NCBI GenBank assembly: GCA_046074525.1 | Contig: JBJTOK010000038.1 | Location: forward strand, 128,305-192,304 | Reading direction: 5' to 3' | Length of the DNA stretch: 64,000 nucleotides | DNA from: Flavobacteriales bacterium | GTDB taxonomy: Bacteria > Bacteroidota > Bacteroidia > Flavobacteriales_C > GCA-002722245 | In this document: one piece after another, positions 6,244 to 64,000 of the stretch | Layout of the letters: each line of letters begins with the position of its first letter | Position numbering within the stretch: position 1 is the first letter of the stretch | The notes under the pieces: generated by a model | Seen by the model: the letters and a program-made list of their open reading frames with translations, nothing else | Told to the model about the DNA's origin: nothing | The model's database searches: none | Program-made: the position numbers and the translations under genes

Positions 6244-8211
6244 CTATTGAACAACCATAAACTCCGTCCTCCTGTTATTCGCCCTGCCCTTTTCCGTATC
6301 ATTACTATCTATAGGCATTACATCCGCATAGCCTTTGGAAGTCAATCTATCGGCTGAAATTCCATTTTTTACCAGGTATTCCTTCACGGCATTTGCACGA
6401 TTTTGCGACAAAGTTTGGTTATGCGCTTTTGAACCCTGGTTATCGGTATGTCCGCCAACCTCAATTTTCAACGTTGGATTTTTATTGAGAAAGGCCACCA
6501 GTTTATCCAATTCCGTCTTAGATTCTGGTTTTAAAACATAGGAATCCGTAGCGAAGAAAATGTTTTTCAACACTACTTTTTCATTCACACCAATCTTCTT
6601 CATCGGTACATCTTTACGGAAAGCATCCTCCCCTTTTTTAGGATCGGTGAGCTCAAAATTTTCCGAGAAAAAGAGATAGCCTCCCTCAGTAGAAACATTT
6701 AAAGCGTAGTTTTTGCCAACAGGTAAACTCACCAGGAAGGAACCATCCTTAGCATCTGAAAATGACTCCACCACCTGCTTATTGGTCTCCAGATCAATCA
6801 ACTCAAAAGAAGCTCCTCCCAAAGGCTTTTTCGTCTTTTCATCATAAACAATTCCTTTCATATAAGTCACAGGAATCGGCTTGGCACTTTGAGGTAGTTT
6901 GAAATAATAAATATCCATCTCTCCCATTCCTCCTGATCTATTGGATGCGAAGTAAGCCAACTCACCTTTGGCATCGATAAACAAAGTCCTGTCATCTTCA
7001 CTGGTATTAATAGGATAACCCAAATTAACCGGATCACCCCACGAACCATCAGGCTGGCGCTTGCACATATATAAATCGCGACCACCCATTCCCGGGTGAC
7101 CTGTCGAAGCAAAGTATAAAGTCTGGTTATCAGGATGAATAAATACTCCATCTTCAAATCCGTAAGTATTTATTTTCGGACCCAGATTTTCGGGTTTCGA
7201 CCAGGCATTCCCTAAAAAATGAACTACATAAATATCTGATTCACCGTAGGAACCCGCACGTGCACTGGCAAAATAAATATCTTTTCCGTCGGGAGAAACA
7301 GAGGGTTGTGAATCAAAACGACCTGAGTTAACCTGCTGACCCAAATTTACGGGAAGCGACCATTTTCCGCCACTTGTTTTCTTACTAAAAAACAAATCAC
7401 AACTTCCAAAGCCCATTCTTCCTTCACCATAACTTCCATATTCATCGGGACAAATCGTTAATATCATAACGTTTGCCGAAGGCCACATAGATAAAGCACC
7501 TTCGTTGGCAGGAGAGCTGAGAGGTTTTCCAATATTTACTGCAGAAGACCATCCACTTCCTGTTTTTTCACTTACATAAAAATCTTCCTGCTCATTTTTC
7601 TTCCAGTGTCCGGTAGGAAGCATAACAGAGTCGGTCCACACTGAGCGGGTCAATACAAATACTTCCTCATCAATAGTAACATAAGGATTAAAATCATTGA
7701 ATTTTGAATTGATAGCAGGGCCGGCATTAACCGGATTAAAAGGCACCGGATGTTTCACCGCTTCACGTGCAAATGTGCAACTGGCCAGTATTTTCTCTGC
7801 TTTAAACTTTAACTTATCTCCCTTAGTGTACTTTGCCAAGAAAATATTCAAGTACTTCTCCGCCGCATCAAAATCCTGCTGAATAAAATACAAACCTCCT
7901 AAATCGAGATATACCGGAATGAAGAAATCAGGATTGATGCTTAAGGCCTTTTGGATATCATCAATCGCCTTTTGATTTTGTTTTTGATCGGCATAGATAT
8001 AGCTCCTCAAAACATAAGCTTCACAAAACAAAGGATCTTTGTCGATGGCTTTGTTTATTGATACCAAGGCATTTTCAGGATGATACTCCTGCATGGAAGC
8101 AGTTGCAGCTTCGTAATATTCAATAGCTTTTTTCGACTTCGTAGTATACTGCTGCTGTGCAAACAACAACTGTGAAATAGCCATTAAAAATATTGTAATG
8201 ATTAATCTCAT
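6244..8211 (-). CDS. Outer-membrane-associated protein with TPR repeats, TolB-like (PD40) beta-propeller repeats and C-terminal OmpA peptidoglycan-binding domain
   Basis: C-terminal OmpA signature (NIFFATDSYVLKPESK...GHTDNQGSKAHNQTLSQNRANAV...), central WD40-like/PD40 repeats, N-terminal TPRs. Signal peptide begins at ATG 8211 (MRLIITIFLMAISQLLFAQQ); track start 8220 is TTG. Confidence 0.8.
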   Translation of the reverse strand: MRLIITIFLMAISQLLFAQQQYTTKSKKAIEYYEAATASMQEYHPENALVSINKAIDKDPLFCEAYVLRSYIYADQKQNQKAIDDIQKALSINPDFFIPVYLDLGGLYFIQQDFDAAEKYLNIFLAKYTKGDKLKFKAEKILASCTFAREAVKHPVPFNPVNAGPAINSKFNDFNPYVTIDEEVFVLTRSVWTDSVMLPTGHWKKNEQEDFYVSEKTGSGWSSAVNIGKPLSSPANEGALSMWPSANVMILTICPDEYGSYGEGRMGFGSCDLFFSKKTSGGKWSLPVNLGQQVNSGRFDSQPSVSPDGKDIYFASARAGSYGESDIYVVHFLGNAWSKPENLGPKINTYGFEDGVFIHPDNQTLYFASTGHPGMGGRDLYMCKRQPDGSWGDPVNLGYPINTSEDDRTLFIDAKGELAYFASNRSGGMGEMDIYYFKLPQSAKPIPVTYMKGIVYDEKTKKPLGGASFELIDLETNKQVVESFSDAKDGSFLVSLPVGKNYALNVSTEGGYLFFSENFELTDPKKGEDAFRKDVPMKKIGVNEKVVLKNIFFATDSYVLKPESKTELDKLVAFLNKNPTLKIEVGGHTDNQGSKAHNQTLSQNRANAVKEYLVKNGISADRLTSKGYADVMPIDSNDTEKGRANNRRTEFMVVQ

Positions 8212-8223
8212 ATGCTTCAATGT

Positions 8224-18421: not shown

Positions 18422-19351
18422 CTATTTATTAAAAACCTTTTTTTCTTTGGTTCCATCAAGGCTATATAAATACCAGGTTCCTGTTTGGAACCCATTTTTA
18501 TTGTACTTTCCCTCCATCTTGATAGTACCATTGGTATAATATTCTAAATAGCTTCCTGTTTTATAATTCCTCTTTATTTTAACTTGACCATTTTCATAAT
18601 ACTCCAAGTATTTCCCCGTATGATCTTTACCTAAAAACATCCCATTTAAATAAAAGTCATCGAAGAAAATCTTATAAACCCCTTGAGCATCTGAAGTAAT
18701 CCATTCATTTTCAGAAACACAAAAATCATATATGGACTGAATTGATCCATTTAAATAAAAAGTAGTGGCTTTGACACTTTTTTCAGGTATGCTCTTCCAT
18801 TTAGAGTAGTTATAGCTTTGTGTTATTTGACCTGTAGAATCGCAATAATTCCAAAGTCCCACTTTTCTTCCACGAATATATTCTCCTTTGGCCTTTATCG
18901 CAGAGTTGCTTTCATGATAGTAAATCCAAACTCCTGATGGCTCATTAAAACAAAGATTTCCTGTAGCTGATACTTTCTGAGTAGAATAAAAGTATGCGGT
19001 AAATGCTCCATGATGAAATCGTTCGTCGATATTTACCCATTCTTTTTTTGTATCAGAACAACAATAATATGTTTTGACAGAGTCTTCATAAATAGCACAA
19101 ATCCTTTTCTCTGTAGCGTTGGAGGAATCTAGTTTATCTATTCCTAAATTATAGCAATACAAATTCATTTTTGAAGCAGTATACAATGGATGAAAATGTC
19201 CTTCAACTCCATCAAACAATTGCTTATGATTGTTATAAAATAAAGTATCGGTAATTTTACTAATTACCCAGCGTTGTGAAAAGCTAATATTTATTAGCAG
19301 TAAAAACAGGAGCGATAGTACCCATCTTAAATTTGATTTTTTAAAATTCAT
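18422..19351 (-). CDS. Secreted MORN-repeat-variant (YwqK-like) protein
   Basis: Signal peptide; C-terminal tandem repeats of the GxYxEYYENGQxKxKxNYKxG type characteristic of MORN-variant/YwqK-family proteins. Confidence 0.55.
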   Translation of the reverse strand: MNFKKSNLRWVLSLLFLLLINISFSQRWVISKITDTLFYNNHKQLFDGVEGHFHPLYTASKMNLYCYNLGIDKLDSSNATEKRICAIYEDSVKTYYCCSDTKKEWVNIDERFHHGAFTAYFYSTQKVSATGNLCFNEPSGVWIYYHESNSAIKAKGEYIRGRKVGLWNYCDSTGQITQSYNYSKWKSIPEKSVKATTFYLNGSIQSIYDFCVSENEWITSDAQGVYKIFFDDFYLNGMFLGKDHTGKYLEYYENGQVKIKRNYKTGSYLEYYTNGTIKMEGKYNKNGFQTGTWYLYSLDGTKEKKVFNK

Positions 19352-19634: not shown

Positions 19635-22600
19635 CTACCTGAACAAGGTCACTCTTCCGATCTGAGTTTTCGGCTTGCCGGTGAAGGAATCTGTATAGAT
19701 CAATTTCCATACATACACATCAATCTCGGCATCACGTAAAGTATTGGCACGTTTTCCATTCCATGGTTCGTCAATCACTGTAGATTTAAAGATCACTTCA
19801 CCCCAGCGGTCGAAAATCAGGAATTCGTAATTGTCGCACTTATCACACTTGTGATTGATTCCCGCCGGATAGAAGACTTCATTCTTGCCATCGCCATTTG
19901 GTGTAAAGGCATTTGGAATGTACAAAGTGAACTGCCCCTTGATGTAAATCTCTTTCATCACTGTATCGGCACACATTGCGTTTTGCGCAATGAGGGTCAC
20001 CGGAATCGTATCGCCTTCAGGAGTATTGAACAACACTATTTCATCTTCGTTGGCCGAAGCAGATGGAGTGCCCAGCATGCCGAAATCCCAAAGGTAATTG
20101 GTAGCACCAGTCGACTCGTTATCAAAGGTAACTGTAGGATCCAGTGAACTTACAGGATCCGGACTGTAAACGAAACCAGCCACCGGAACTTCGGAAATGA
20201 TTACAGAGGTAGCTGTATCCGCCACACAGCCATTGGTAAACACTACCGACAAAGTGACCAGGATTCCGTTACCCGCCTTGGTATAAGTGTGACTCGTTGA
20301 AGCGTCAGCGGCAGTAATATCCTGTGTTGCACCATCACCAAAATCCCAATGCGCACTCAATACATTCGCAGTAGAACTATCAGTAAAATTGATGGTCACC
20401 GGCACACATCCTCCTGCAACATCAGGGGCGATGATGGCTTGTGGCAAGGCATCTACCTGTATCTGGATAGAATCGGTATTAGGACATAAGCCACCCTGAG
20501 TGTACTTGATCCAGTGCAAACCTTGTCCGGCCACAGCAGGATCAAACAATCCGCTGGCACTTACGCCTGGTCCGCTGAAAGTACCACCTGCTGTATTCGC
20601 TACCAATTGCTGTTTTGGTAAATTTTCGCAAAACGGTCCGGCAGCCTGTATCGACGCATCTTTAGGATCGAGAACAGAAATCATGATAGTATCTTCATCC
20701 GGACAGGTTCCTGTGGCTCCGCTGATTTTGTAGCGCACAGCATATGGTCCGCCAGCTGTTGCTATTGCAGGATCAAACATACCGGAAGCGTTAACTCCTG
20801 TTCCGGTCCACACACCACCTGGGTTAAGGGAAGTCAATTGAACTGCTGCATCATAGCTACACAAACTGTCGGCAGCACTTGTAATAGCTGCCTCTTCACG
20901 GGCAACAACAATGATATCAACACTGTCTTTCGCACTGCAGGTTGGCGTAGCGCCTGATACTACATACACTACTTTATAAGTTGTACCGGCGGTAGCCAGT
21001 GACGGATCGAATTTACCGGTGGCATCCACTAATCCGGCAGGTACTGAAGTCCAGCTTCCACCAGGTGTTGTAGCGCCGCTCAACTGAATTTGATACAGGG
21101 TAGTATCCTCACAAATCGACACCGTTGTTTTGGTGATGTCGGCCACCATTTGGTTCACTACGTGGATGGTCATGGTATCCTGTACCCAGCAGGCACCGCT
21201 GGTTTTGTAAGTGATGAGATGTGCGCCTACAGTCGCTGCCGACGGATCAAACTCACCTGTGTTTGCATTAGTGATTCCTGTACCACTCCATGTTCCCGCA
21301 CTGGACACAGCGTCTGCTTTCAGCGTTTGCAAAGGATCATTGAGGCAGAATGGACCCTGCCCCAAAGTGATCTTCGCAGTATCGGTCATGCCTACAGTAA
21401 TCAGTACGCTATCGGCAGCACTGCAGCCGATAGTTGCACCCGGAGCAACATAATACACTTTAAATATTCCGGCACCGGATACTGCTGGATCAAATAATCC
21501 TGTATTGCTCACCAAGCCCATTGCCGGAGCCGATAACCAGGTTCCTCCCGGTGTGCTGTTATTACTCAACAGTATTTGTTTTGCTGTGGCGTTTTCACAA
21601 AGTGTAGTATCAGAAGTAAGGATAATCGCTATCATCTGACCATATACTTTCACTGAAGCAGTATCCGTTACCTTACAAGTTCCGCTGGTCGTATAAGTCA
21701 TGAGGTAAGTGCCTGCCCCAACCGAAGGATCAAAAGCACCTGTAGCAGGGTTGGTAATTCCTGTACCGCTCCATGTTCCTGCATCAGAAACAGCTTCTTT
21801 CTCAATGGTCACAGCTCCTTGTGATTCGCAGAAAGCCTGCCCCGTAGTGATTTTTGCAGTATCAATTGAAAGAACAGAAATGGCAAGGAAAGCTGTATCT
21901 CCACACTGACCGGCTTTTCCGTACCAGATGGTATCTGTTCCCACATCAGCTAGTTTCGGATCGTAATAACCGAAGTTCACATCGCTAATTCCTTTTCCGC
22001 TCGTTGTCCAGAAAACACCACCAGGTGTATTGACTTCTATGGTGTCTTGCGAAGCATTATGGCAATAGCTAGTTGTTGCCGAAGTAATGGTTAAGGAAAT
22101 TCCATTTGAAATAAGGATGTTGATAGAATCGGATTCCGGACAGGCTCCTGCCGTTGCATACTTTATTTTATAAGAACCTAGTGACAATCCGCTTGGATCA
22201 AAAGCACCGCTGGAAGTATTGGTAATGCCACTTCCACTCCAGGTTCCACCAGATGTAGAACCTCCTGTCAACTGAATCGTTGTTGCAGGATCGGAATTAC
22301 AGAACGGTCCGGCAGGCAATATCTTCGCAGAATCAGAAGGAAGTACTGTGATCTTCACTGATGCAGACCCCACAGTTCCGCAGGTTCCCGAAGTCGCCAG
22401 GCGTTTGAAATAAGTAGTCACACCCAAAGCTCCCGGCGCATAACCCAAAGCCGTAGCGAGATTAATATCAAAGAAATTACTGTTATCAGTAGAAGATTGC
22501 CATTTGTAAGAATAGCTTCCTGTACCACCCGCTGCTGCAGTAAGCTGCGTCAATGCAGCAGGCACTGTATTGGCACAAATGGATTGTGGTGAACCTACAC

Positions 22601-25600
22601 TTCCCGAAGTAAGATTGGCATACACGTTCACTGTAGCAGGAGCGCCTATAGAACCACAGGTTCCCGAAGTAGCTACTCGCTTATAATACATTTTAGTGGT
22701 GAGTGCTGAAGTAGGCGTGTAAGCCGTTCCTGTTTCCCCCGCAATGCTGGTCCAGAAAGAACTATCCGAAGACGATTGCCACTGGTAAGTGTAAGTGCCT
22801 GTAGCACCAGTTGGCAAAGTAACACTGGTAAACGATGCTGGTACTGTATTGTAACAGATGTATTGGTTGGCTGCAACAGTTCCTGCAGTGAGCGGAGCAT
22901 ACACCGTTACTTTAACCGGAGCCGTGTACACCGGCGCACCTCCCGAAGTCACCATTCTTCGGAACCAGGTAGTATCGGTTAACGTTCCTGCTGTATAAGT
23001 AGCCAGATCTGCCCCTACAATATCTGTCCACAATGTACTATCTGTAGACGATTGCCACTGATAGGTATAAGTTCCGTTGCCTCCGCTTGCTGCAGTGGTG
23101 CTGGTAAAAGCAGCCGGAGTGGAATTGTAGCAAATGCTTTGGTTGGCTGCAATAACACCCGGATTGGTTGGTGATGCCACTGTAGCGCAAGTCACAATAT
23201 TTTGTGCACCAGGAGAAGGTGTAATACCCTTCATCGCTACATAAGCAGTATTGGTAATTGAACCATTGGTACAAGCCGACACAGTACCGGTCCAGGTGTA
23301 CGTAATGGTATCATTGGCCAGCACCGGACCCGCAATTTTAGGCCAGGTCACTGTTCCTGCAACATTGGTTCCTCCATTCGCTGCTGAAACGAAAGTTACT
23401 TCCGCTGGGATGGCATCGGTCATTTGCTGATCAAAACCTGAATCCAGGGCCGTGTAATAATCGGCCAGCACATTAGTTCCCCAGCTGTCTCCTCCGGCAG
23501 CATCTCCGTTGATCAATCCTGCATACCCTGCTTTTACAGTAAATCCACTCTGACTTACAGTTGGTGATCCCGTGGTACTGTTTAGCCATACTTGCGCAGT
23601 ACCGCCACTCAGTACAATTTTATAAGTAAACTTTCCTCCCGCTAAAGTGAGGGCCACTGTGCTCTTACTCAAAAGCGTTGTTCCGTTCCAGAAGGCAACT
23701 TCACAATTTCCTGCTCCTCCATTCGGTTTAAAAGTAATGTACTCGCCATTGGCCATAGCTCCGCCAGTATGCCTGAAAGCAACACCAAAAGCAGAAGAAC
23801 TTGTTGGTGTGATGGTTCCGGTTAATGTTCCGTTGGTACCATGCGAATATTTATAAGTCATTACTGTATTGCTGTTGGAAACCGAAGTGACATTACCAGT
23901 GCCAACTGCAACCGTCATATTGGATCCGCCGGATTGCTTAGTCCAGTCGGCAGCAACAGTTGGCGTGTTGACTATCGTACCGTGTGTATTTTTGTATCCA
24001 ATGGTATAAGTAATAGGATCGCCAACATTATAAGAAGTAGTGTTGGCTGTTTTCTTCATGCTTGTTTTTGGTGGTACCACGATGATAGGATCACAAGTGG
24101 AGACCACAATTGCGGTATCTGATACCAGACATTCGTTAGTAGCTGTAGCAGTAGCAACGTTGATATGCGTTTGATCTGCTTTCGGACAAACACCATCTAC
24201 TGTTACCCAGAATTTATATACCGTGCTATCACTGATTTTCATGTTGGCGATAGTTGGCCAGGTGATGGTTCCACCTGACAGATTTCCTGTTGGATAACCC
24301 GCAAAATAACCACCAAAGGTTACGCCTGCCGGGAGTATATCTGTTACCACTACATTGTTCAGCTCACGCCCCGACAGCGGAGCATCACCATAAATACGTC
24401 GCCATGTATAGCCATCCCACTCCTCTACTAACTGTTTAGTAATGGTTTTAGTAACGTTATTGGAGCAGTTGTTAGGATGGTATTTCAAAACTGCCTGATT
24501 CGGTAAAAGCGGATCAGTCCAGTCTTTAGCAATTGGCCAGTATACATCGCCGTCAGCAGCATTCATCGTTGGTTCTGCCGACCAATCGGTTGTCCAGTTG
24601 TAATTCGCCCACGCGGCATCATGCACATCAAAAACCAAACGTTGAGGCATCAACGCACCTTCGTGAATAAATCGGCCCTGCCCCGAATAGAAAGCAAGGA
24701 AAGGTGTAATGGTCGCAATCTGATTAGGGAATGTAAGCATGAATCGATGGTTCCATGTAGCCCCGGGGGTGATGGTTTGCTGGGTAGCTGTAGGCGCTAC
24801 TGACGAACCTTCATTTACAGTTGTAGCCACCACCCATGTTGGTGGCCCTGGCTTGTTGAGGTAATAGGAAACTCTGTAGTTATTGTAGTTGATATAGGCT
24901 TCTTCAGCACCGTGATAAATTCTGTATTTCAGTTTCAATGTACTGGCAGCAGCTCCTAATCCACCATGTGCGCCGGCCATAATTACACCCTGACGACCTC
25001 CATTAAGGAAAGGCACCGACTTATTTTTCACAACAATGGTATACGACACAGTATCACCTGGATGCAACTGGCTTTTGGAAGCTGTTTTGGTAATATTGAG
25101 TGGGTGCTCAGAAAGAATATCCACACAGTTTCTTTCCATTACAGGAGTAATTCTGTTAGGGTATTCGTTGCTGGTCCAACCACTACCATTGGTACAACTG
25201 ATCGTTGCCTGATTACACAACCTTCCTGTAGCACTCTTCTCCACTTTCACCACCACTTTTATACTGTCCATCGTCGCTGCGAGTCCGCCGGTTTTGAAAC
25301 CAGTAACATTTCCGATATTGAAGGTTAGGGTATTTCCCGAAACAGTAGCCGGCTTGGTAGAGCTAACATAAGTGAGTCCCGCCGGAAGTGCATCCACAAT
25401 CTTTACCCCGGTAGCGTCGGTTTTTCCATAATTTCGATAAGAAATGGTATAGGTAATCTGGTCACAGGTAGAAGCATAGGTTTTGTCTACTGCCATGTAC
25501 ACTTTCATATTTGCTGGCCCACTTCCGAAATCCAGGGGATCATGCAGGTTTCCGGAAAGCACCAGCATCCCAAGCAAACGCTTCCACTCATGAAAATAGC

Positions 25601-27137
25601 GGGCACGGGAAGTGAGATATTTTTGTGCTGGATCATTGTACTGGTCCCATTCTATAACACATTGACGGAACATCTGCGCCATCAAATTTCTATCGCCAGA
25701 AATTACTGCCGCCGGTGAACTTGTACCATGAGCCCAGTTAAGAGGAAATGCACCTCCTCCGGTTCCATCGGGATTGTAATCCCATTTAACGTTAGGTGGT
25801 CCGCCATAATCAAGGGTATTGTGTGTGCGACAAGAATTATTGTATGGCGCGGCCTCAGGCGCTTTCATAAAAGCGGCCAAACGTAAGGCGGCATCATATT
25901 CATAAGAATTTGAGCCCGCAGTGTATTCATGCGTCACGGGATTCCAGGTATTGGCAGGTGCACCATTCCACAAATAATTCAGATGTGTTCGCCAAGCCCA
26001 TCGATTATCTTCAGATGCATTGAAATGACTGAAAGTAGTTGCTGTTCCTGTAACTGTGTAAGTACCTGCCCAGGTAATATAGCCTTTAGCATGCGCCTGT
26101 CCGACCAGCCAGTCGTCGGATGCCTCCGCCCGCTTATATTGTTCAATACACCATGGAGCAGATGGACCTGCAGCAGCACCTTCAGCAGTAAGCATTTCGT
26201 AAAAACTCCTGTAGTAAGATGGTGCCGCATAATCTACATAATTCGATTGCGGCCCCTTGGTTTCAGGGATCATCCCTTTATATCCTCCAGTAGCCCAGTT
26301 GGTCGTTTCCCCCCAGGAATCTCCTCCTTTATGATAACCATCCAAACCTATTACTCCTGAAACATAATTAACATTATTCAAATTAAACTTTAGTGTGTCC
26401 ACCATAGTTTTAATGTACTTGATTGCTTCCTGTTTATAAGTTACTGGCTGACCGCTACAAGGATCAATGCAAATAGTAGCATTGTCACCCCATTGCTTCC
26501 AAGCAATCAGTAAAGCCATCGCGACATCCACGTCTCCATCCATTGCTGAATTTCCTCCGAGTGCACCTCCCAGTACGTCAGTAGGAGCGCCCAGGCTTCC
26601 TGCACCGGAAATACCCGGACTATAAGAATACCCAGGAGAGTTAACCACGCAATCAATAAAGCGTTTTGTTTTCTGGAACTGACGATCATGCGCCCACATA
26701 TAATATCCGTCGAAAGTAGCCTTGTCAGCCATGTAAGCAGCTGCTAGCAAAAAATATCCATCGCCTTCTACGCAAGTGCAATGGCCAACATCCGCACCTG
26801 AGGCAACATCATGCGGCATAATGTATTTTACACCGGCAACAGTCACCGGCCCGTATGCACCTCCTTTATTTACATTGTAAGTTAAGCTGTTGGTCATGAT
26901 CTGATAAGCATCCCTAACCCTCTGCTCCATCTCGGCATGCGGTACTCCTACTCCATTTTGTGAAGCGAGTGATGTTCCTCCGGCGTAATCCTTAAACTGA
27001 GGAAAAGGGAAATTAGGATTCCCTGAATTGATAGCAACTGTTACCTGAGAAAATACAGTTGTAGATAAAAGCAAAAAAGCACAAAGAAGAACTTGCGCTG
27101 AAGAACGAAAATCATGAAGAGGAAAACTTGGTTGCAT
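19635..27137 (-). CDS. Giant (about 2500 aa) T9SS-secreted cell-surface protein: N-terminal GH8-like glycoside hydrolase domain, SprB-like repeats, Ig-like repeat array, 2 PKD domains, type-B T9SS C-terminal sorting domain
   Basis: Signal peptide; GH8 signature-like stretch SAMDGDVDVAMALLIAWKQWG (near match to PROSITE GH8 pattern A-[ST]-D-[AG]-D-x2-[IM]-A-x-[SA]-[LIVM]-...); three QWQSS SprB-like repeats; about 8 tandem about 80-aa repeats (GPFC...GGxWSGxGIT...GxFDPS...); two WDFGDG PKD domains; C-terminal YIPNAFTPNGDGKNEVF...IFDRWGEVIFKS...WNGK = gliding-motility-associated CTD (T9SS type B). Track start TTG 27143; first ATG 27137. Confidence 0.9.
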   Translation of the reverse strand: MQPSFPLHDFRSSAQVLLCAFLLLSTTVFSQVTVAINSGNPNFPFPQFKDYAGGTSLASQNGVGVPHAEMEQRVRDAYQIMTNSLTYNVNKGGAYGPVTVAGVKYIMPHDVASGADVGHCTCVEGDGYFLLAAAYMADKATFDGYYMWAHDRQFQKTKRFIDCVVNSPGYSYSPGISGAGSLGAPTDVLGGALGGNSAMDGDVDVAMALLIAWKQWGDNATICIDPCSGQPVTYKQEAIKYIKTMVDTLKFNLNNVNYVSGVIGLDGYHKGGDSWGETTNWATGGYKGMIPETKGPQSNYVDYAAPSYYRSFYEMLTAEGAAAGPSAPWCIEQYKRAEASDDWLVGQAHAKGYITWAGTYTVTGTATTFSHFNASEDNRWAWRTHLNYLWNGAPANTWNPVTHEYTAGSNSYEYDAALRLAAFMKAPEAAPYNNSCRTHNTLDYGGPPNVKWDYNPDGTGGGAFPLNWAHGTSSPAAVISGDRNLMAQMFRQCVIEWDQYNDPAQKYLTSRARYFHEWKRLLGMLVLSGNLHDPLDFGSGPANMKVYMAVDKTYASTCDQITYTISYRNYGKTDATGVKIVDALPAGLTYVSSTKPATVSGNTLTFNIGNVTGFKTGGLAATMDSIKVVVKVEKSATGRLCNQATISCTNGSGWTSNEYPNRITPVMERNCVDILSEHPLNITKTASKSQLHPGDTVSYTIVVKNKSVPFLNGGRQGVIMAGAHGGLGAAASTLKLKYRIYHGAEEAYINYNNYRVSYYLNKPGPPTWVVATTVNEGSSVAPTATQQTITPGATWNHRFMLTFPNQIATITPFLAFYSGQGRFIHEGALMPQRLVFDVHDAAWANYNWTTDWSAEPTMNAADGDVYWPIAKDWTDPLLPNQAVLKYHPNNCSNNVTKTITKQLVEEWDGYTWRRIYGDAPLSGRELNNVVVTDILPAGVTFGGYFAGYPTGNLSGGTITWPTIANMKISDSTVYKFWVTVDGVCPKADQTHINVATATATNECLVSDTAIVVSTCDPIIVVPPKTSMKKTANTTSYNVGDPITYTIGYKNTHGTIVNTPTVAADWTKQSGGSNMTVAVGTGNVTSVSNSNTVMTYKYSHGTNGTLTGTITPTSSSAFGVAFRHTGGAMANGEYITFKPNGGAGNCEVAFWNGTTLLSKSTVALTLAGGKFTYKIVLSGGTAQVWLNSTTGSPTVSQSGFTVKAGYAGLINGDAAGGDSWGTNVLADYYTALDSGFDQQMTDAIPAEVTFVSAANGGTNVAGTVTWPKIAGPVLANDTITYTWTGTVSACTNGSITNTAYVAMKGITPSPGAQNIVTCATVASPTNPGVIAANQSICYNSTPAAFTSTTAASGGNGTYTYQWQSSTDSTLWTDIVGADLATYTAGTLTDTTWFRRMVTSGGAPVYTAPVKVTVYAPLTAGTVAANQYICYNTVPASFTSVTLPTGATGTYTYQWQSSSDSSFWTSIAGETGTAYTPTSALTTKMYYKRVATSGTCGSIGAPATVNVYANLTSGSVGSPQSICANTVPAALTQLTAAAGGTGSYSYKWQSSTDNSNFFDINLATALGYAPGALGVTTYFKRLATSGTCGTVGSASVKITVLPSDSAKILPAGPFCNSDPATTIQLTGGSTSGGTWSGSGITNTSSGAFDPSGLSLGSYKIKYATAGACPESDSINILISNGISLTITSATTSYCHNASQDTIEVNTPGGVFWTTSGKGISDVNFGYYDPKLADVGTDTIWYGKAGQCGDTAFLAISVLSIDTAKITTGQAFCESQGAVTIEKEAVSDAGTWSGTGITNPATGAFDPSVGAGTYLMTYTTSGTCKVTDTASVKVYGQMIAIILTSDTTLCENATAKQILLSNNSTPGGTWLSAPAMGLVSNTGLFDPAVSGAGIFKVYYVAPGATIGCSAADSVLITVGMTDTAKITLGQGPFCLNDPLQTLKADAVSSAGTWSGTGITNANTGEFDPSAATVGAHLITYKTSGACWVQDTMTIHVVNQMVADITKTTVSICEDTTLYQIQLSGATTPGGSWTSVPAGLVDATGKFDPSLATAGTTYKVVYVVSGATPTCSAKDSVDIIVVAREEAAITSAADSLCSYDAAVQLTSLNPGGVWTGTGVNASGMFDPAIATAGGPYAVRYKISGATGTCPDEDTIMISVLDPKDASIQAAGPFCENLPKQQLVANTAGGTFSGPGVSASGLFDPAVAGQGLHWIKYTQGGLCPNTDSIQIQVDALPQAIIAPDVAGGCVPVTINFTDSSTANVLSAHWDFGDGATQDITAADASTSHTYTKAGNGILVTLSVVFTNGCVADTATSVIISEVPVAGFVYSPDPVSSLDPTVTFDNESTGATNYLWDFGMLGTPSASANEDEIVLFNTPEGDTIPVTLIAQNAMCADTVMKEIYIKGQFTLYIPNAFTPNGDGKNEVFYPAGINHKCDKCDNYEFLIFDRWGEVIFKSTVIDEPWNGKRANTLRDAEIDVYVWKLIYTDSFTGKPKTQIGRVTLFR
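20400..23160 (-). repeat. Intragenic tandem repeat array (coding SprB-like and Ig-like modules) inside the giant gene
   Basis: Protein-level periodicity (about 80-95 aa modules, about 10 copies); mirrored on the antisense strand by mutually similar shadow ORFs (21211..21453 and 21709..21909 both encode ...VIPVPLHVPA..TAS...). Confidence 0.6.
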
Positions 27138-30295: not shown

Positions 30296-30772
30296 ATGAA
30301 AAAACTTCTTTTGTATTCCATACCGGTTTTCATCTCCCTTTCCTTTGCACCGAGAAACACGGATCATTGTGATTGCGCGTTTTCCATCTCCGATATGGAA
30401 GAAGCCATGAAAGACCCTGAAAAAGTAACTTGCCTTGATTTAGGCATGAAGAAACTAAAAGTGGTGCCGGCAGATATTGCCAAACTTTCCAATCTGGAAT
30501 GCCTCGACTTATCCTTCAACCAGATTCCCTCTCTTCCCGAATCCTTTATATCACTAACCAAATTGAAATACATCAATCTTGATGGCACCCGCTACATGGC
30601 TAAAATGCCTCCGGTATTAGCCAAACTGCCAAGCCTCAAAAGAGTTGATGCCAAGGACCATCCGGAATGGAGCGCCGCCACAAAAGATGCTGGAGTAAAA
30701 TTGCTTCCGGGTGTGAATGTGGTATATGAAGAGCCTGCTGAAACGGAGGTTGATGTTCCGACGACAAAGTAA
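30296..30772 (+). CDS. Small secreted leucine-rich-repeat (LRR) protein
   Basis: Signal peptide; LxxLxLxxNxIxxLP repeats (LSNLECLDLSFNQIPSLPESFISLTKLKYINL). Confidence 0.55.
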   Translation: MKKLLLYSIPVFISLSFAPRNTDHCDCAFSISDMEEAMKDPEKVTCLDLGMKKLKVVPADIAKLSNLECLDLSFNQIPSLPESFISLTKLKYINLDGTRYMAKMPPVLAKLPSLKRVDAKDHPEWSAATKDAGVKLLPGVNVVYEEPAETEVDVPTTK

Positions 30773-33510: not shown

Positions 33511-33537
33511 TTGCAGTAAAAATAAGTATTATTGTCT

Positions 33538-34440
33538 ATGCAACTGGAGAAAATTTTCGAGCTAATCGGTCATAGCGCATCAGTGTACGCGCTGGAGAAA
33601 GGACTGAATGGCAATGAAATTTTTTCAGGCAGCGGCGATAAAATCGTCACCGCGTGGGATACCGAAAAGCAGAGCAATATCTCTTTCACGATAAAAACCA
33701 ACTCCCCCGTTATTGCACTAAAGCATATCGAAAAACATAAGCTATTGCTGGTCGGACTATTCAACGGAAATCTCCATGTTATCAACACCCAGGATAAAAA
33801 AGAAGTGAAATTCCTGCCTTACCATAAAGAGGGTGTTTTCCATATCGAATACGACGAGAAAAGCGATCGCATTTTTTTGCTGAGTGGAGATGGAACAGTA
33901 TCGGCTTGGGACAGCAACTTCAAGCCGATCAAGGCTCTTGCACTGGGCAGCGACAAAATTCGATCCATGAGCATTCATAAGGATTTAAACCTGGCCGCTT
34001 TCGCCACCGGCGACGGACTAATTAAAATCATGAAGCTTTCCAACTTTGAGATCACCTATGAAATTCCTGCCCACGACAAGGTGAACGTGGTGAAATTTCA
34101 TCCCGAAAAAAAAGTATTGATGAGTGGCGGGAAAGACGCTTTCCTGAAAGTCTGGAACATAGAACACCAATACCAAAATATCATTTCCATACCTGCACAC
34201 AATTGGGCGATTTATGGCATTGAATTCAGCAGCGACAACAAACATTTTATCACCTGTAGTCGCGATAAAACCATTAAACTATGGGATGCAAAAACACTGG
34301 ATTTACTGGAGCGCGTCGACTACAAATCACATCGCGGACATACCCATTCGGTGAATTGTATTTACTGGCCTGAAGGAAAAGATTATTTCATTTCAGGAGG
34401 CGACGACAAGCGAATCATCGGCTGGAAACTCAGGAGCTGA
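33538..34440 (+). CDS. WD40-repeat protein
   Basis: Repeated WD/GH-WD units (SGSGDKIVTAWD, LSGDGTVSAWD, SGGKDAFLKVWN, TCSRDKTIKLWD, SGGDDKRIIGWK). ATG 33538 (track TTG 33532). Confidence 0.7.
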   Translation: MQLEKIFELIGHSASVYALEKGLNGNEIFSGSGDKIVTAWDTEKQSNISFTIKTNSPVIALKHIEKHKLLLVGLFNGNLHVINTQDKKEVKFLPYHKEGVFHIEYDEKSDRIFLLSGDGTVSAWDSNFKPIKALALGSDKIRSMSIHKDLNLAAFATGDGLIKIMKLSNFEITYEIPAHDKVNVVKFHPEKKVLMSGGKDAFLKVWNIEHQYQNIISIPAHNWAIYGIEFSSDNKHFITCSRDKTIKLWDAKTLDLLERVDYKSHRGHTHSVNCIYWPEGKDYFISGGDDKRIIGWKLRS

Positions 34441-62090: not shown

Positions 62091-64000
62091 TTATCTCATC
62101 AAAGTAACGTGACCTACAATAGGATCATGCTTGATTCCCGAGAAGTGATCCACGTAAGTGACGCGCCATACATAAACATCCACCTGTGCATCCCGCATAT
62201 CATTAGATCGTTTTCCATTCCATGCTTCCGTAGGATCATTGGTTTTAAAAATGACTTCACCCCAGCGATCGAAAATTATGAATTCATATCCCGCATCACC
62301 GAAATTGATTCCCCGAGGTAAAAAACCATCATTATCTCCATCATCGTTTGGAGTAAATGCTGATGGTACGAATATCGTTGTACCCTCTCTCACATACACA
62401 TTGTGAACAATGGAATCGTAGCAGGAACCATTACTTACTTTTAATTTCACCGCAATAGTATCATCCTTCGTTGAGCTGAAAGTTACTTCCTGATTTTGCG
62501 AGGTTGATGTGGAAGGAGTTCCTTTCGGACCAAAATCCCAAAGCCAGCTCGTTACATCACTTGATGATGCATCATAAAATGTAGCCACTGGATGTTCGGT
62601 GCTCATGATATCAGGAGTTACATTGAACTCTGCTTTTACGGGAGGTATTACAGTAATATAATCCTTCTTAATTTCAATTGAAATACAGCCGTTGGAATAG
62701 GTATTTTGGACTTTAACAGTATGCGTTCCCACATCCCAATAACTCCATAAATAACTTCCCTGAACCCCTACCAATCCACCTCCCTCATAGAAAGTCCACA
62801 AGGAACTAATACCAGGCATTGAATCTGAAATATCAAAAAAATGGGCTATAAATGGCGTACATCCTACACGCTTCTCAGCAAAAAAATCGGTTTTAGGCAC
62901 TTTCTTCACTCTAACATTATAAAAAGCGGTATCAATGCAGGAGCCATTGGCCATCCTGTATTCTATGGAATGATTACCCACCGTTGCTCCGGCCGGATTA
63001 AAGAACCCTAAAGAATTGATTTTCCCTTCTGCTTCCCACCATGTCCCTGCACTACCTGCTGCAGCCAACTGTATTCCGGCTGCATTTTCACAAATGGTAG
63101 AATCACCGGTAACGATTGCTGAGGGAGGGGTAACAACAGTCATTGTTACAGTATCAGGAATATAACAGTTATATCCTGTAACCTCATAAGTGATTTTAAA
63201 AGAACCTGTAGCTGATGCATCAAACTTCCCTGTAGCGGTATTCAATCCCGATCCTGCGCCGATAAACTTCCATGATGCCGGAACAACATAACCCAGCGTA
63301 GCAGGATCTACCGGCAACCATGCATTAGTGAGCGTATAAGACTGGCCTGTACAAAGGGTTTTGTCTTCCGTAATTACAGAAGTGAATACAGGAAGTACAG
63401 TAATATCTAACGAAGCAGTATCACCACAATTACTTTCCAGTCCATAACTAATGGTATTCACTCCCGCTGTAGCCAGCGCAGGATTAAACAGTCCTGTCGT
63501 CTGATTAATACAGCTTCCGCACGTGGCAAAGAATTTTCCACCGCTGGAGACCTTGGAAATGGTAAAAGGTGCTGCATTCTGACAAACTGTATTCTGGGTA
63601 GTTGATATCGATGGATCAAATTGTCCGATAACATGCATCACCATAGTTTGTTTATCCGGACACGGACCGGCAAATGAATATTCCAGTGAATAATCCCCCA
63701 CTACATAACTTGCATTCTGAGGATCAAAAGGAGAAGTAGTCGGACCTACTGTTCCCGCTGCCCCGGCCGGAGCTGAAATGATCTTCCAGGTACCTCCAGC
63801 TTTCTTCGCAAAAGCGTTGATATTTACCGCAGCATCAGTTTTACAAACAGTAGAATCGGTGATTGTCAGACTCGCATCTGTACTATCGTTTACAATAACA
63901 TCAATCGATTTCTGATCTCCACACAAACCGCCCAAAGTGTAATATACTTTTTTGGTTCCGGCAGGTGTTGCCTTTGAAGGATCAAACAACCCCGTTGCAG
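62091..64000 (-). CDS. Second large T9SS type-B CTD cell-surface protein, C-terminal part (gene continues beyond window end)
   Basis: Same Ig-like repeat type (..TGxFDPS..), PKD-like domains and C-terminal FVPSAFTPNDDGDNDGF...IFDRWGEVIFKT...WNGK sorting domain as the giant protein; reading frame stays open to position 64000 (the track start at 63989 is an internal TTG). Confidence 0.85.
   Translation of the reverse strand, partial: ATGLFDPSKATPAGTKKVYYTLGGLCGDQKSIDVIVNDSTDASLTITDSTVCKTDAAVNINAFAKKAGGTWKIISAPAGAAGTVGPTTSPFDPQNASYVVGDYSLEYSFAGPCPDKQTMVMHVIGQFDPSISTTQNTVCQNAAPFTISKVSSGGKFFATCGSCINQTTGLFNPALATAGVNTISYGLESNCGDTASLDITVLPVFTSVITEDKTLCTGQSYTLTNAWLPVDPATLGYVVPASWKFIGAGSGLNTATGKFDASATGSFKITYEVTGYNCYIPDTVTMTVVTPPSAIVTGDSTICENAAGIQLAAAGSAGTWWEAEGKINSLGFFNPAGATVGNHSIEYRMANGSCIDTAFYNVRVKKVPKTDFFAEKRVGCTPFIAHFFDISDSMPGISSLWTFYEGGGLVGVQGSYLWSYWDVGTHTVKVQNTYSNGCISIEIKKDYITVIPPVKAEFNVTPDIMSTEHPVATFYDASSSDVTSWLWDFGPKGTPSTSTSQNQEVTFSSTKDDTIAVKLKVSNGSCYDSIVHNVYVREGTTIFVPSAFTPNDDGDNDGFLPRGINFGDAGYEFIIFDRWGEVIFKTNDPTEAWNGKRSNDMRDAQVDVYVWRVTYVDHFSGIKHDPIVGHVTLMR

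Follow-up and report, generated by a model that had tools for sequence, protein, structure and literature searches.

The 64,000-nucleotide (nt) stretch of a Flavobacteriales bacterium genome analyzed here (contig JBJTOK010000038.1; "the window" means this whole stretch) encodes a giant protein of 2,500 amino acids (aa). [quoted passage not shown] The open reading frame (ORF) is uninterrupted on the minus strand, with the ATG at 27137 and the stop codon at 19635-19637. Across its entire 2,500 aa, the product shows 100% identity to NCBI MFM7022772.1, whose record name is [quoted passage not shown] Given this full-length identity, the gene is real and already deposited, under a name that describes the tail only. 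The reading we favor, with a probability of roughly 65%, is that of a surface-held GH8 endo-beta-glycanase exported by the Sec and type IX systems, with modules resembling carbohydrate-binding modules (CBMs) in a ~1,300-aa head, a private stalk as a spacer, and beta-1,4-glucan as the probable substrate. Residue numbers below are those of the giant protein.

In a single-sequence Pfam scan, the giant protein matched the GH8 profile PF01270 at 23.5 bits (E = 3.3e-5), 0.5 below the curated cut-off of 24, and the match spanned only profile positions 46 to 132 of 341. Most relatives have a precomputed PF01270 match. When a profile made from the window GH8 domain and 18 relatives was compared with known structures, the significant matches were to GH8 structures only (E from 2.7e-15 to 1e-5). 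The best was the glucanase 5xd0 (E = 2.7e-15); ChoK chitosanase (7cju/1v5c) was matched at E of ~1e-11 and CelA (1cem) at 3.8e-9. The sole non-GH8 entry above the last-listed GH8 structure was an OmpA-like (CLIPPER) chain, with E = 0.12. An hhalign comparison of 87 family sequences with CelA, 5xd0, and ChoK gave a probability of 99.9% and an E value of 6.2e-31, the alignment of query positions 11 to 504 with CelA 1 to 359 being full-length. The Protein Data Bank (PDB) sequences used here were obtained with a CelA sequence as the query, which agreed with 1CEM in 358 of 359 residues and also returned 5xd0 and ChoK. The head is significantly similar to GH8 members (PF01270; CAZy GH8) and has their (alpha/alpha)6 barrel fold. 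The profile comparison, the hhalign result, and the fold all bear out the original prediction of a GH8-like N-terminal head, which had cited the string SAMDGDVDVAMALLIAWKQWG (aa 197 to 217). The domain, which makes up ~20% of the 2,500 aa, opens with a conserved INSGNPxFPFPQF motif. It is ~140 residues longer than CelA owing to family-specific insertions, located around aa 150 to 195 and 240 to 290, plus a ~35-aa block at 398 to 430.

To locate the catalytic positions, CelA numbering was confirmed on the chain (E95 in SEGMGY, D152 in ATDADED, Y215 in PSYFAP, and D278 in KYDATR) and mapped by hhalign onto 87 sequences that are 39 to 83% identical to the window GH8 domain. The acid E95 corresponds to Glu124, D152 to Asp200, Y215 to Tyr303, and R281 to Arg379, each conserved in 87/87 sequences. 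The column of the base D278 holds Glu376 (85/87), and the residue next to it is Asp377 (84/87). The proton-donor Glu and the signature Asp of GH8 (Glu124 and Asp200) are both in place. Neither of the two outcomes named as refuting the original prediction, a head that matches no hidden Markov model and a loss of the catalytic residues, was observed. In ChoK and 5xd0, the D278 column is Asn, and ChoK takes its base from a loop further upstream, as E309 (assigned by its spacing from E122). We rejected a ChoK-type (GH8b) base for the window family, which has Glu/Asp where ChoK and 5xd0 have Asn. Since the D278 column is a carboxylate here, the arrangement appears to be CelA-type, with a Glu-Asp pair standing for a single Asp. 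By homology, the domain would be an inverting enzyme with Glu124 as the acid and either Glu376 or the adjacent Asp377 as the predicted base. Its substrate would most likely be a beta-1,4-glucan, either cellulose or a similar glycan of plant walls, and the attack would be by contact. The window protein shares with the Clostridium (Hungateiclostridium) thermocellum GH8 endoglucanase CelA (1CEM/1KWF) the acid Glu, the equivalents of Asp152, Tyr215, and Arg281, and a carboxylate at the D278 site. It differs from CelA in having the Glu376-Asp377 pair, and in targeting: a T9SS signal and a stalk in place of a dockerin.

The gene comprises the following parts, in window coordinates and in order from the N terminus:
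27048..27137, minus strand: putative Sec signal peptide, aa 1-30, MQPSFPLHDFRSSAQVLLCAFLLLSTTVFS, read from the sequence, which has a hydrophobic core and then a site of small residues
25533..27047, minus strand: divergent GH8 catalytic domain, aa 31-535
26766-26768, minus strand: Glu124 codon
26538-26540, minus strand: Asp200 codon
26229-26231, minus strand: Tyr303 codon
26007-26012, minus strand: Glu376/Asp377 codons
26001-26003, minus strand: Arg379 codon
25137..25517, minus strand: DUF11 immunoglobulin (Ig)-like domain 1, aa 541-667
24081..25136, minus strand: DUF11 Ig-like domain 2, aa 668-1019, with a probable nested CBM3-like beta-sandwich at aa ~705-930 (24348-25025)
23208..24068, minus strand: DUF11 Ig-like domain 3, aa 1024-1310, with a probable nested ConA-like/CBM66-like jelly roll at aa ~1050-1237 (23427-23990)
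22344..23192, minus strand: three ~93-aa tandem repeats, aa 1316-1598, motif G(T/S)Y(T/S)Y(Q/K)WQSS, from self-comparison and alignment
20442..22343, minus strand: eight ~80-aa two-cysteine modules, aa ~1566/1599-2232, from self-comparison and alignment
19938..20441, minus strand: PKD region, aa 2233-2400, a strong PKD domain and a second, weaker copy (PKD_4, PF00801)
19638..19919, minus strand: type-B T9SS C-terminal sorting domain, aa 2407-2500 (TIGR04131, CHU_C)

The head, the repeats, the PKD region, and the tail of this map had been recognized in the original prediction, which overlooked the DUF11/CBM-like middle third. Within the ~770 aa between the GH8 domain and the stalk (aa 541 to 1310), Pfam and NCBIfam give four DUF11/TIGR01451 matches (aa 545 to 1301), which we read as three DUF11 domains. 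The region is kept together with the GH8 domain in most relatives, and an AlphaFold2 model of aa 540 to 1320, made from a 51-sequence alignment, was all beta with a mean confidence (pLDDT) of 89.6. The DUF11 matches are split, with N-terminal strands at aa 681 to 708 and a C-terminal part at aa 1238 to 1301, and beta-sandwiches of ~190 to 220 aa sit between the split matches. This pattern suggests nesting, in which both DUF11 domain 2 and DUF11 domain 3 are interrupted by a beta-sandwich, probably CBM3-like in domain 2 (insert 1) and probably CBM66/ConA-like in domain 3 (insert 2).

The profile of insert 1 (aa 705 to 930) had a single PDB match at E ≤ 10, a weak one (E = 0.006) to CBM3a of the CipC scaffoldin (1g43), in which the alignment takes in the "YRVSYY" and "DWS" stretches. 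Its resemblance to the CBM3s of cellulosomal scaffoldins (CipC CBM3a, 1G43; B. cellulosolvens CBM3b, 2XBT) is a weak profile match that takes in "(N/L)YR(V/L)SYY" and "DWS" stretches. Compared with them, the window module is ~70 residues larger, is seemingly nested in a DUF11 Ig-like domain, and has no Pfam CBM_3 match. CBM3 was not among the top 50 Foldseek matches. For insert 2 (aa 1050 to 1237), the profile gave only a marginal match to a polysaccharide lyase family 7 jelly roll (E = 0.15), while Foldseek confirmed CBM66 for the predicted model (TM score 0.65 to 0.68), the CBM66 of a levanase being the best match of this second module. Neither module belongs to a Pfam family. Insert 1 is present in nearly all relatives and insert 2 in the longer ones only. 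The nested modules would plausibly hold polysaccharide.

One genome per species was scanned with a degenerate pattern. This yielded 282 relatives, of which the best 80 loci were analyzed. They belong to Cytophagales (31 loci, including Cytophaga aurantiaca DSM 3654, Cytophaga sp., and Sporocytophaga), Fibrobacterota (23; Fibrobacter, Chitinispirillaceae, and relatives), Bacteroidales/Paludibacteraceae, mostly from gut and rumen (16), and Flavobacteriales (3); 7 are unclassified. When a profile was searched exhaustively against 1.84 billion representatives, 855 matches at E ≤ 1e-30 were returned. Among the matches listed, most are full-length matches to the head in proteins of 1,000 to 4,500 aa; the rest cover the DUF11 part only, so 855 does not measure the clade cleanly. 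A word-indexed search with 18 matches had suggested a rare family, which the genome scan and the library search revealed to be an artifact of the search method.

When the whole protein was compared by tblastn with the 80 related loci, similarity was found in 52 to 80 loci through aa ~1300 and in 1 to 7 loci thereafter. Because similarity collapses at this point, we take the ~1,300-aa head as the conserved unit and the stalk as private to this protein. The family comprises 85 ORFs of 520 to 3,881 aa, some being cut by contig ends, and in nearly all of them the GH8 domain begins 18 to 56 aa past the start of the ORF. Among the 59 complete C termini, CHU_C (type B) is present in 28 and Por_Secre_tail (type A) in 21. 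An enzyme on a type-B stalk is not the rarity that the original prediction implied, given these 28 relatives and the published CHU_3440 and CHU_3441 described below.

The closest relative is found in locus L001, from the Flavobacteriales metagenome-assembled genome nzgw151. [quoted passage not shown] Its gene lies in a cluster (L001, 5-16438) that encodes GH9, GH3, and GH5 (with CBM6 and a type-A CTD) proteins, a 1,428-aa CHU_C protein, the GH8-DUF11 relative itself, and a beta-helix protein that ends in a type-A CTD. A conserved gene neighborhood for the family as a whole was rejected: in all-against-all clustering of ORFs from the 80 loci, no neighbor family occurred in more than 7 loci. In five loci (L004, L007, L031, L055, and L059), GH8-DUF11 paralogues stand side by side in tandem, typically one of ~1,080 to 1,550 aa and one of ~1,200 to 2,860 aa; in L018, a short second GH8 ORF lies directly downstream. 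Downstream of two other relatives are genes for a DPBB_1 (expansin/GH45-like barrel) protein (L072, 16285-17196) and a BNR/sortilin-repeat protein (L044, 18670-19860), which may be accessory plant-wall-active cargo since both have type-A T9SS tails.

The stalk begins with three ~93-aa repeats (48 to 61% identity among copies by self-comparison). The repeats had been called SprB-like, but their best score against SprB (PF13573), in a match confined to these three copies, was 18.6 bits (cut-off 28), and an Ig_7 match was likewise below threshold (16.4 versus 27.3 bits). Next come the ~80-aa modules, for which the predicted number of about eight agreed with the self-comparison. They alternate in two subtypes to form a ~160-aa super-repeat, have no Pfam family at E ≤ 1, and are missing from almost all relatives. 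One of the two PKD domains proposed earlier is a strong copy (PKD_4, 47.6 bits, aa 2240 to 2312); the second stretch is weaker, PF00801 scoring 33.5 bits over the two. The type-B T9SS sorting domain, also predicted, was confirmed at the extreme C terminus by TIGR04131 (37 bits, cut-off 35) and CHU_C (PF13585; 46 to 52 bits, cut-off 27; aa 2407 to 2484 of 2,500). At the other end, a putative Sec signal peptide is predicted from the hydrophobic stretch VLLCAFLLLSTTVFS ahead of the conserved domain start.

From this order of parts, a route and a mode of action can be proposed. The Sec signal peptide would bring the protein to the periplasm, and the type-B CTD would direct its passage through the type IX system. 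It might then be held at the outer membrane, as in the analogous pairs SprB/SprF and PG1035/PorP, by a PorP-like barrel whose gene lies in another part of the genome. The ~1,100-residue stalk (3 + 8 repeat modules plus PKD) would space the head from the cell. In the ~1,300-residue head, the (alpha/alpha)6 GH8 cleft would be followed by the three DUF11 Ig-like domains, with the nested beta-sandwiches holding polysaccharide. A surface-tethered polysaccharide-degrading enzyme, as the original prediction had it, is the best reading because a GH8 fold with its catalytic residues is joined to a type-B signal.

Proteins of this general design are known. Cytophaga hutchinsonii has six GH8 proteins, all with T9SS CTDs and all detected in the proteome on filter paper (PMC6247017; PMC11611037), and S. 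myxococcoides has six GH8s of similar architecture (PMC6247017). Very large proteins combining GH8, Ig/PKD domains, and a CTD are found in the proteomes of both species and are abundant on cellulose; Taillefer et al. state their biological role as unknown (PMC6247017). By published description, CHU_3440, CHU_3441, and CHU_1075 of C. hutchinsonii, as well as MYP_51, MYP_1794, MYP_2156, and others of S. myxococcoides, have the layout of the window protein: an N-terminal GH8 domain making up <50% of the length, followed by Ig-like/PKD domains and a T9SS CTD (PMC6247017; PMC12860637). CHU_3440 and CHU_3441 carry TIGR04131 (type B) (PMC12860637, Table 3), and the C. hutchinsonii genome encodes 27 type-B substrates (PMC12860637). 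Unlike the type-B window protein, the 2,690-aa CHU_1075 has a type-A CTD. CHU_1075 is 32% identical to CelA, compared to ~21 to 25% for the window GH8 domain, which is therefore probably part of a more divergent clade. The 3 + 8 module stalk is the window protein's own. A homologue search with the Cytophaga aurantiaca GH8 domain returned no named C. hutchinsonii protein.

With F. johnsoniae SprB and P. gingivalis PG1035, the window protein shares a type-B CTD on a giant repetitive extracellular protein (PMC9143113); it differs from them in its enzyme head, its sub-threshold SprB repeats, and the lack of an adjacent sprF/porP-like gene. Such type-B cargo binds PorP-like barrels (PMC9143113). 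As predicted from the sequence, no PorP/SprF gene adjoins the giant gene: PF11751/TIGR03519 had no match in the 39 window ORFs scanned. Two candidates for the partner, the downstream MORN gene and a 331-aa ORF with no Pfam match, were rejected as negative at E ≤ 1. No PorP-like gene was found among ten same-strand downstream ORFs of relatives either. In F. johnsoniae, there are 12 type-B proteins and 10 PorP-like proteins (PMC9143113), so one-to-one adjacency of cargo and PorP is not obligatory. Given CHU_3440/3441 and the type-B literature, an enzyme head on a type-B stalk with no private PorP neighbor is an established pattern.

Several observations weigh against a surface-held beta-1,4-glucanase. 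The predicted GH8 model has only moderate confidence (pLDDT 62.9), and the column of the CelA base holds Glu, not Asp. The GH9, GH3, and GH5 neighbors occur in 1 to 3 loci only; the window contains no other carbohydrate-active enzyme, the neighbors being ClpB, the trp operon, and a MORN protein. The lack of a PorP-like partner, in the 64-kilobase (kb) window and the ten downstream ORFs of relatives, bears on anchoring versus release. GH8 members also include xylanases, chitosanases, and licheninases, and a measured activity for any member of this clade was not found in the literature. For GH8s of F. succinogenes, assays have identified the activity as cellulase in some cases and xylanase in others (PMC3079729).

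These assays favor a protein of the same architecture and route acting on another polymer, be it xylan or xylo-oligosaccharides, mixed-linkage beta-glucan, chitosan, or an exopolysaccharide of bacterial or algal origin, as do the glucanase and chitosanase structures among the top profile matches (5xd0, 7cju, and 1v5c), the occurrence of the family in chitin-associated Chitinispirillaceae and Chitinivibrionales, the levanase CBM66 that insert 2 matches best, and the lack of cellulase genes around the window gene. We nevertheless consider another polymer somewhat unlikely, as the base position appears to be CelA-type (Glu376/Asp377 at the D278 site) rather than ChoK-type, GH9, GH3, and GH5 genes stand beside the closest relative, and a CBM3-like module is present. 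That the head might be a noncatalytic, lectin-like carbohydrate-binding domain, making the protein an adhesin, appears very improbable. Such a role would agree with the sub-cut-off single-sequence Pfam score, the long repeat stalk, the adhesin-like DUF11/Ig domains with AgI/II adhesins among the Foldseek matches, an NCBI name resting on the gliding-motility CTD only, and a type-B CTD common to SprB-type proteins (PMC9143113). It is disfavored because the catalytic positions are almost invariant: the acid, the base site, Asp200, Tyr303, and Arg379 are conserved across the 87 sequences as expected under purifying selection on catalysis. The SprB matches, moreover, are sub-threshold, and the C. 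hutchinsonii GH8 relatives are counted as cellulase candidates and were detected on cellulose (PMC6247017).

A glycanase that is released into the medium instead of being tethered would be compatible with the enzymatic reading, and is suggested by the lack of a cognate PorP/SprF-like anchor encoded next door. The large C. hutchinsonii GH8 protein CHU_1075 was found in the greatest amount in the soluble extracellular fraction (PMC6247017), but its CTD is type-A; type-B cargo of this species, including CHU_3441, is found in outer-membrane fractions and is retained there in a waaL mutant (PMC12860637). As the F. johnsoniae numbers make an adjacent partner dispensable and the PorP search in this genome covered 64 kb only, release seems unlikely.

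A surface-held GH8 glycanase would extend a design, a GH8 head on a type-B stalk, that is already common in cellulose- and fiber-degrading bacteria. What is mildly new is the divergent GH8 clade and possibly a cryptic CBM3-like module. The literature search found no mention of GH8 together with DUF11. It is a tentative suggestion, which we regard as rather doubtful, that the clade constitutes an undescribed, deeply divergent GH8 subfamily marked by the INSGNPxFPFPQF motif, the Glu-Asp pair at the base site, the ~140-residue insertions, and an obligatory downstream DUF11 array with a seemingly nested cryptic CBM3-like module. For annotation, an entry named as gliding motility-associated can be read as a predicted GH8-headed multidomain enzyme, and the conserved unit of the clade is defined as ~1,300 aa in which GH8 is followed by a DUF11 array that includes CBM3-like and ConA-like modules, with its catalytic positions mapped. 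This bears on the mechanism of contact-dependent cellulose degraders, which have neither classical CBMs nor cellobiohydrolases. The cellulases of F. succinogenes are reported to lack CBM1/2/3 (PMC3079729). If insert 1 does bind crystalline cellulose, it would provide a cellulose-binding function for contact-dependent degraders of the Cytophaga and Fibrobacter types.

Around the giant gene, the divergently transcribed ClpB gene lies upstream. Downstream are genes for a MORN-repeat protein and a DUF4442 protein, trpE/G/D, and then matches to tryptophan synthase beta and alpha. The product of the next downstream gene (18422-19351, minus strand) is a MORN-repeat-variant protein of 309 aa that weakly matches the LIC20035 adhesin. 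In the 283-nt gap between it and the giant ORF, a terminator/promoter scan found nothing above shuffled expectation, and with no terminator-like site in the gap, the two genes may be cotranscribed. The G+C content of the giant gene (window 20001-26000) is 46 to 48.5%, compared to ~38 to 44% for nearly all of the remaining window, which could reflect either a Thr/Gly/Ala-rich composition or foreign origin.

Elsewhere in the window, a 658-aa protein with TPR, PD40, prealbumin-like, and OmpA domains (6244-8220, minus strand) scored 297 bits against NCBIfam T9SS_PorE (cut-off 600) and 286 bits against the CHU_0125 family of OmpA-like outer-membrane integrity proteins (cut-off 620); no porP-like gene adjoins it. 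In C. hutchinsonii, deleting CHU_0125 reportedly prevents the breakdown of crystalline cellulose (PMC5891637). Toward the end of the window, a second type-B cargo gene (62091-63989, minus strand; CHU_C 46 bits, TIGR04131 42 bits) encodes a protein whose last ~600 aa are ~29% identical to the 1,428-aa CHU_C protein of L001 and whose N terminus may extend past the window. Two proteins of eukaryote-like repeat architecture are encoded near the giant gene on the plus strand: a small 158-aa leucine-rich-repeat protein (30296-30772) and a 302-aa WD40 beta-propeller protein (33532-34440).

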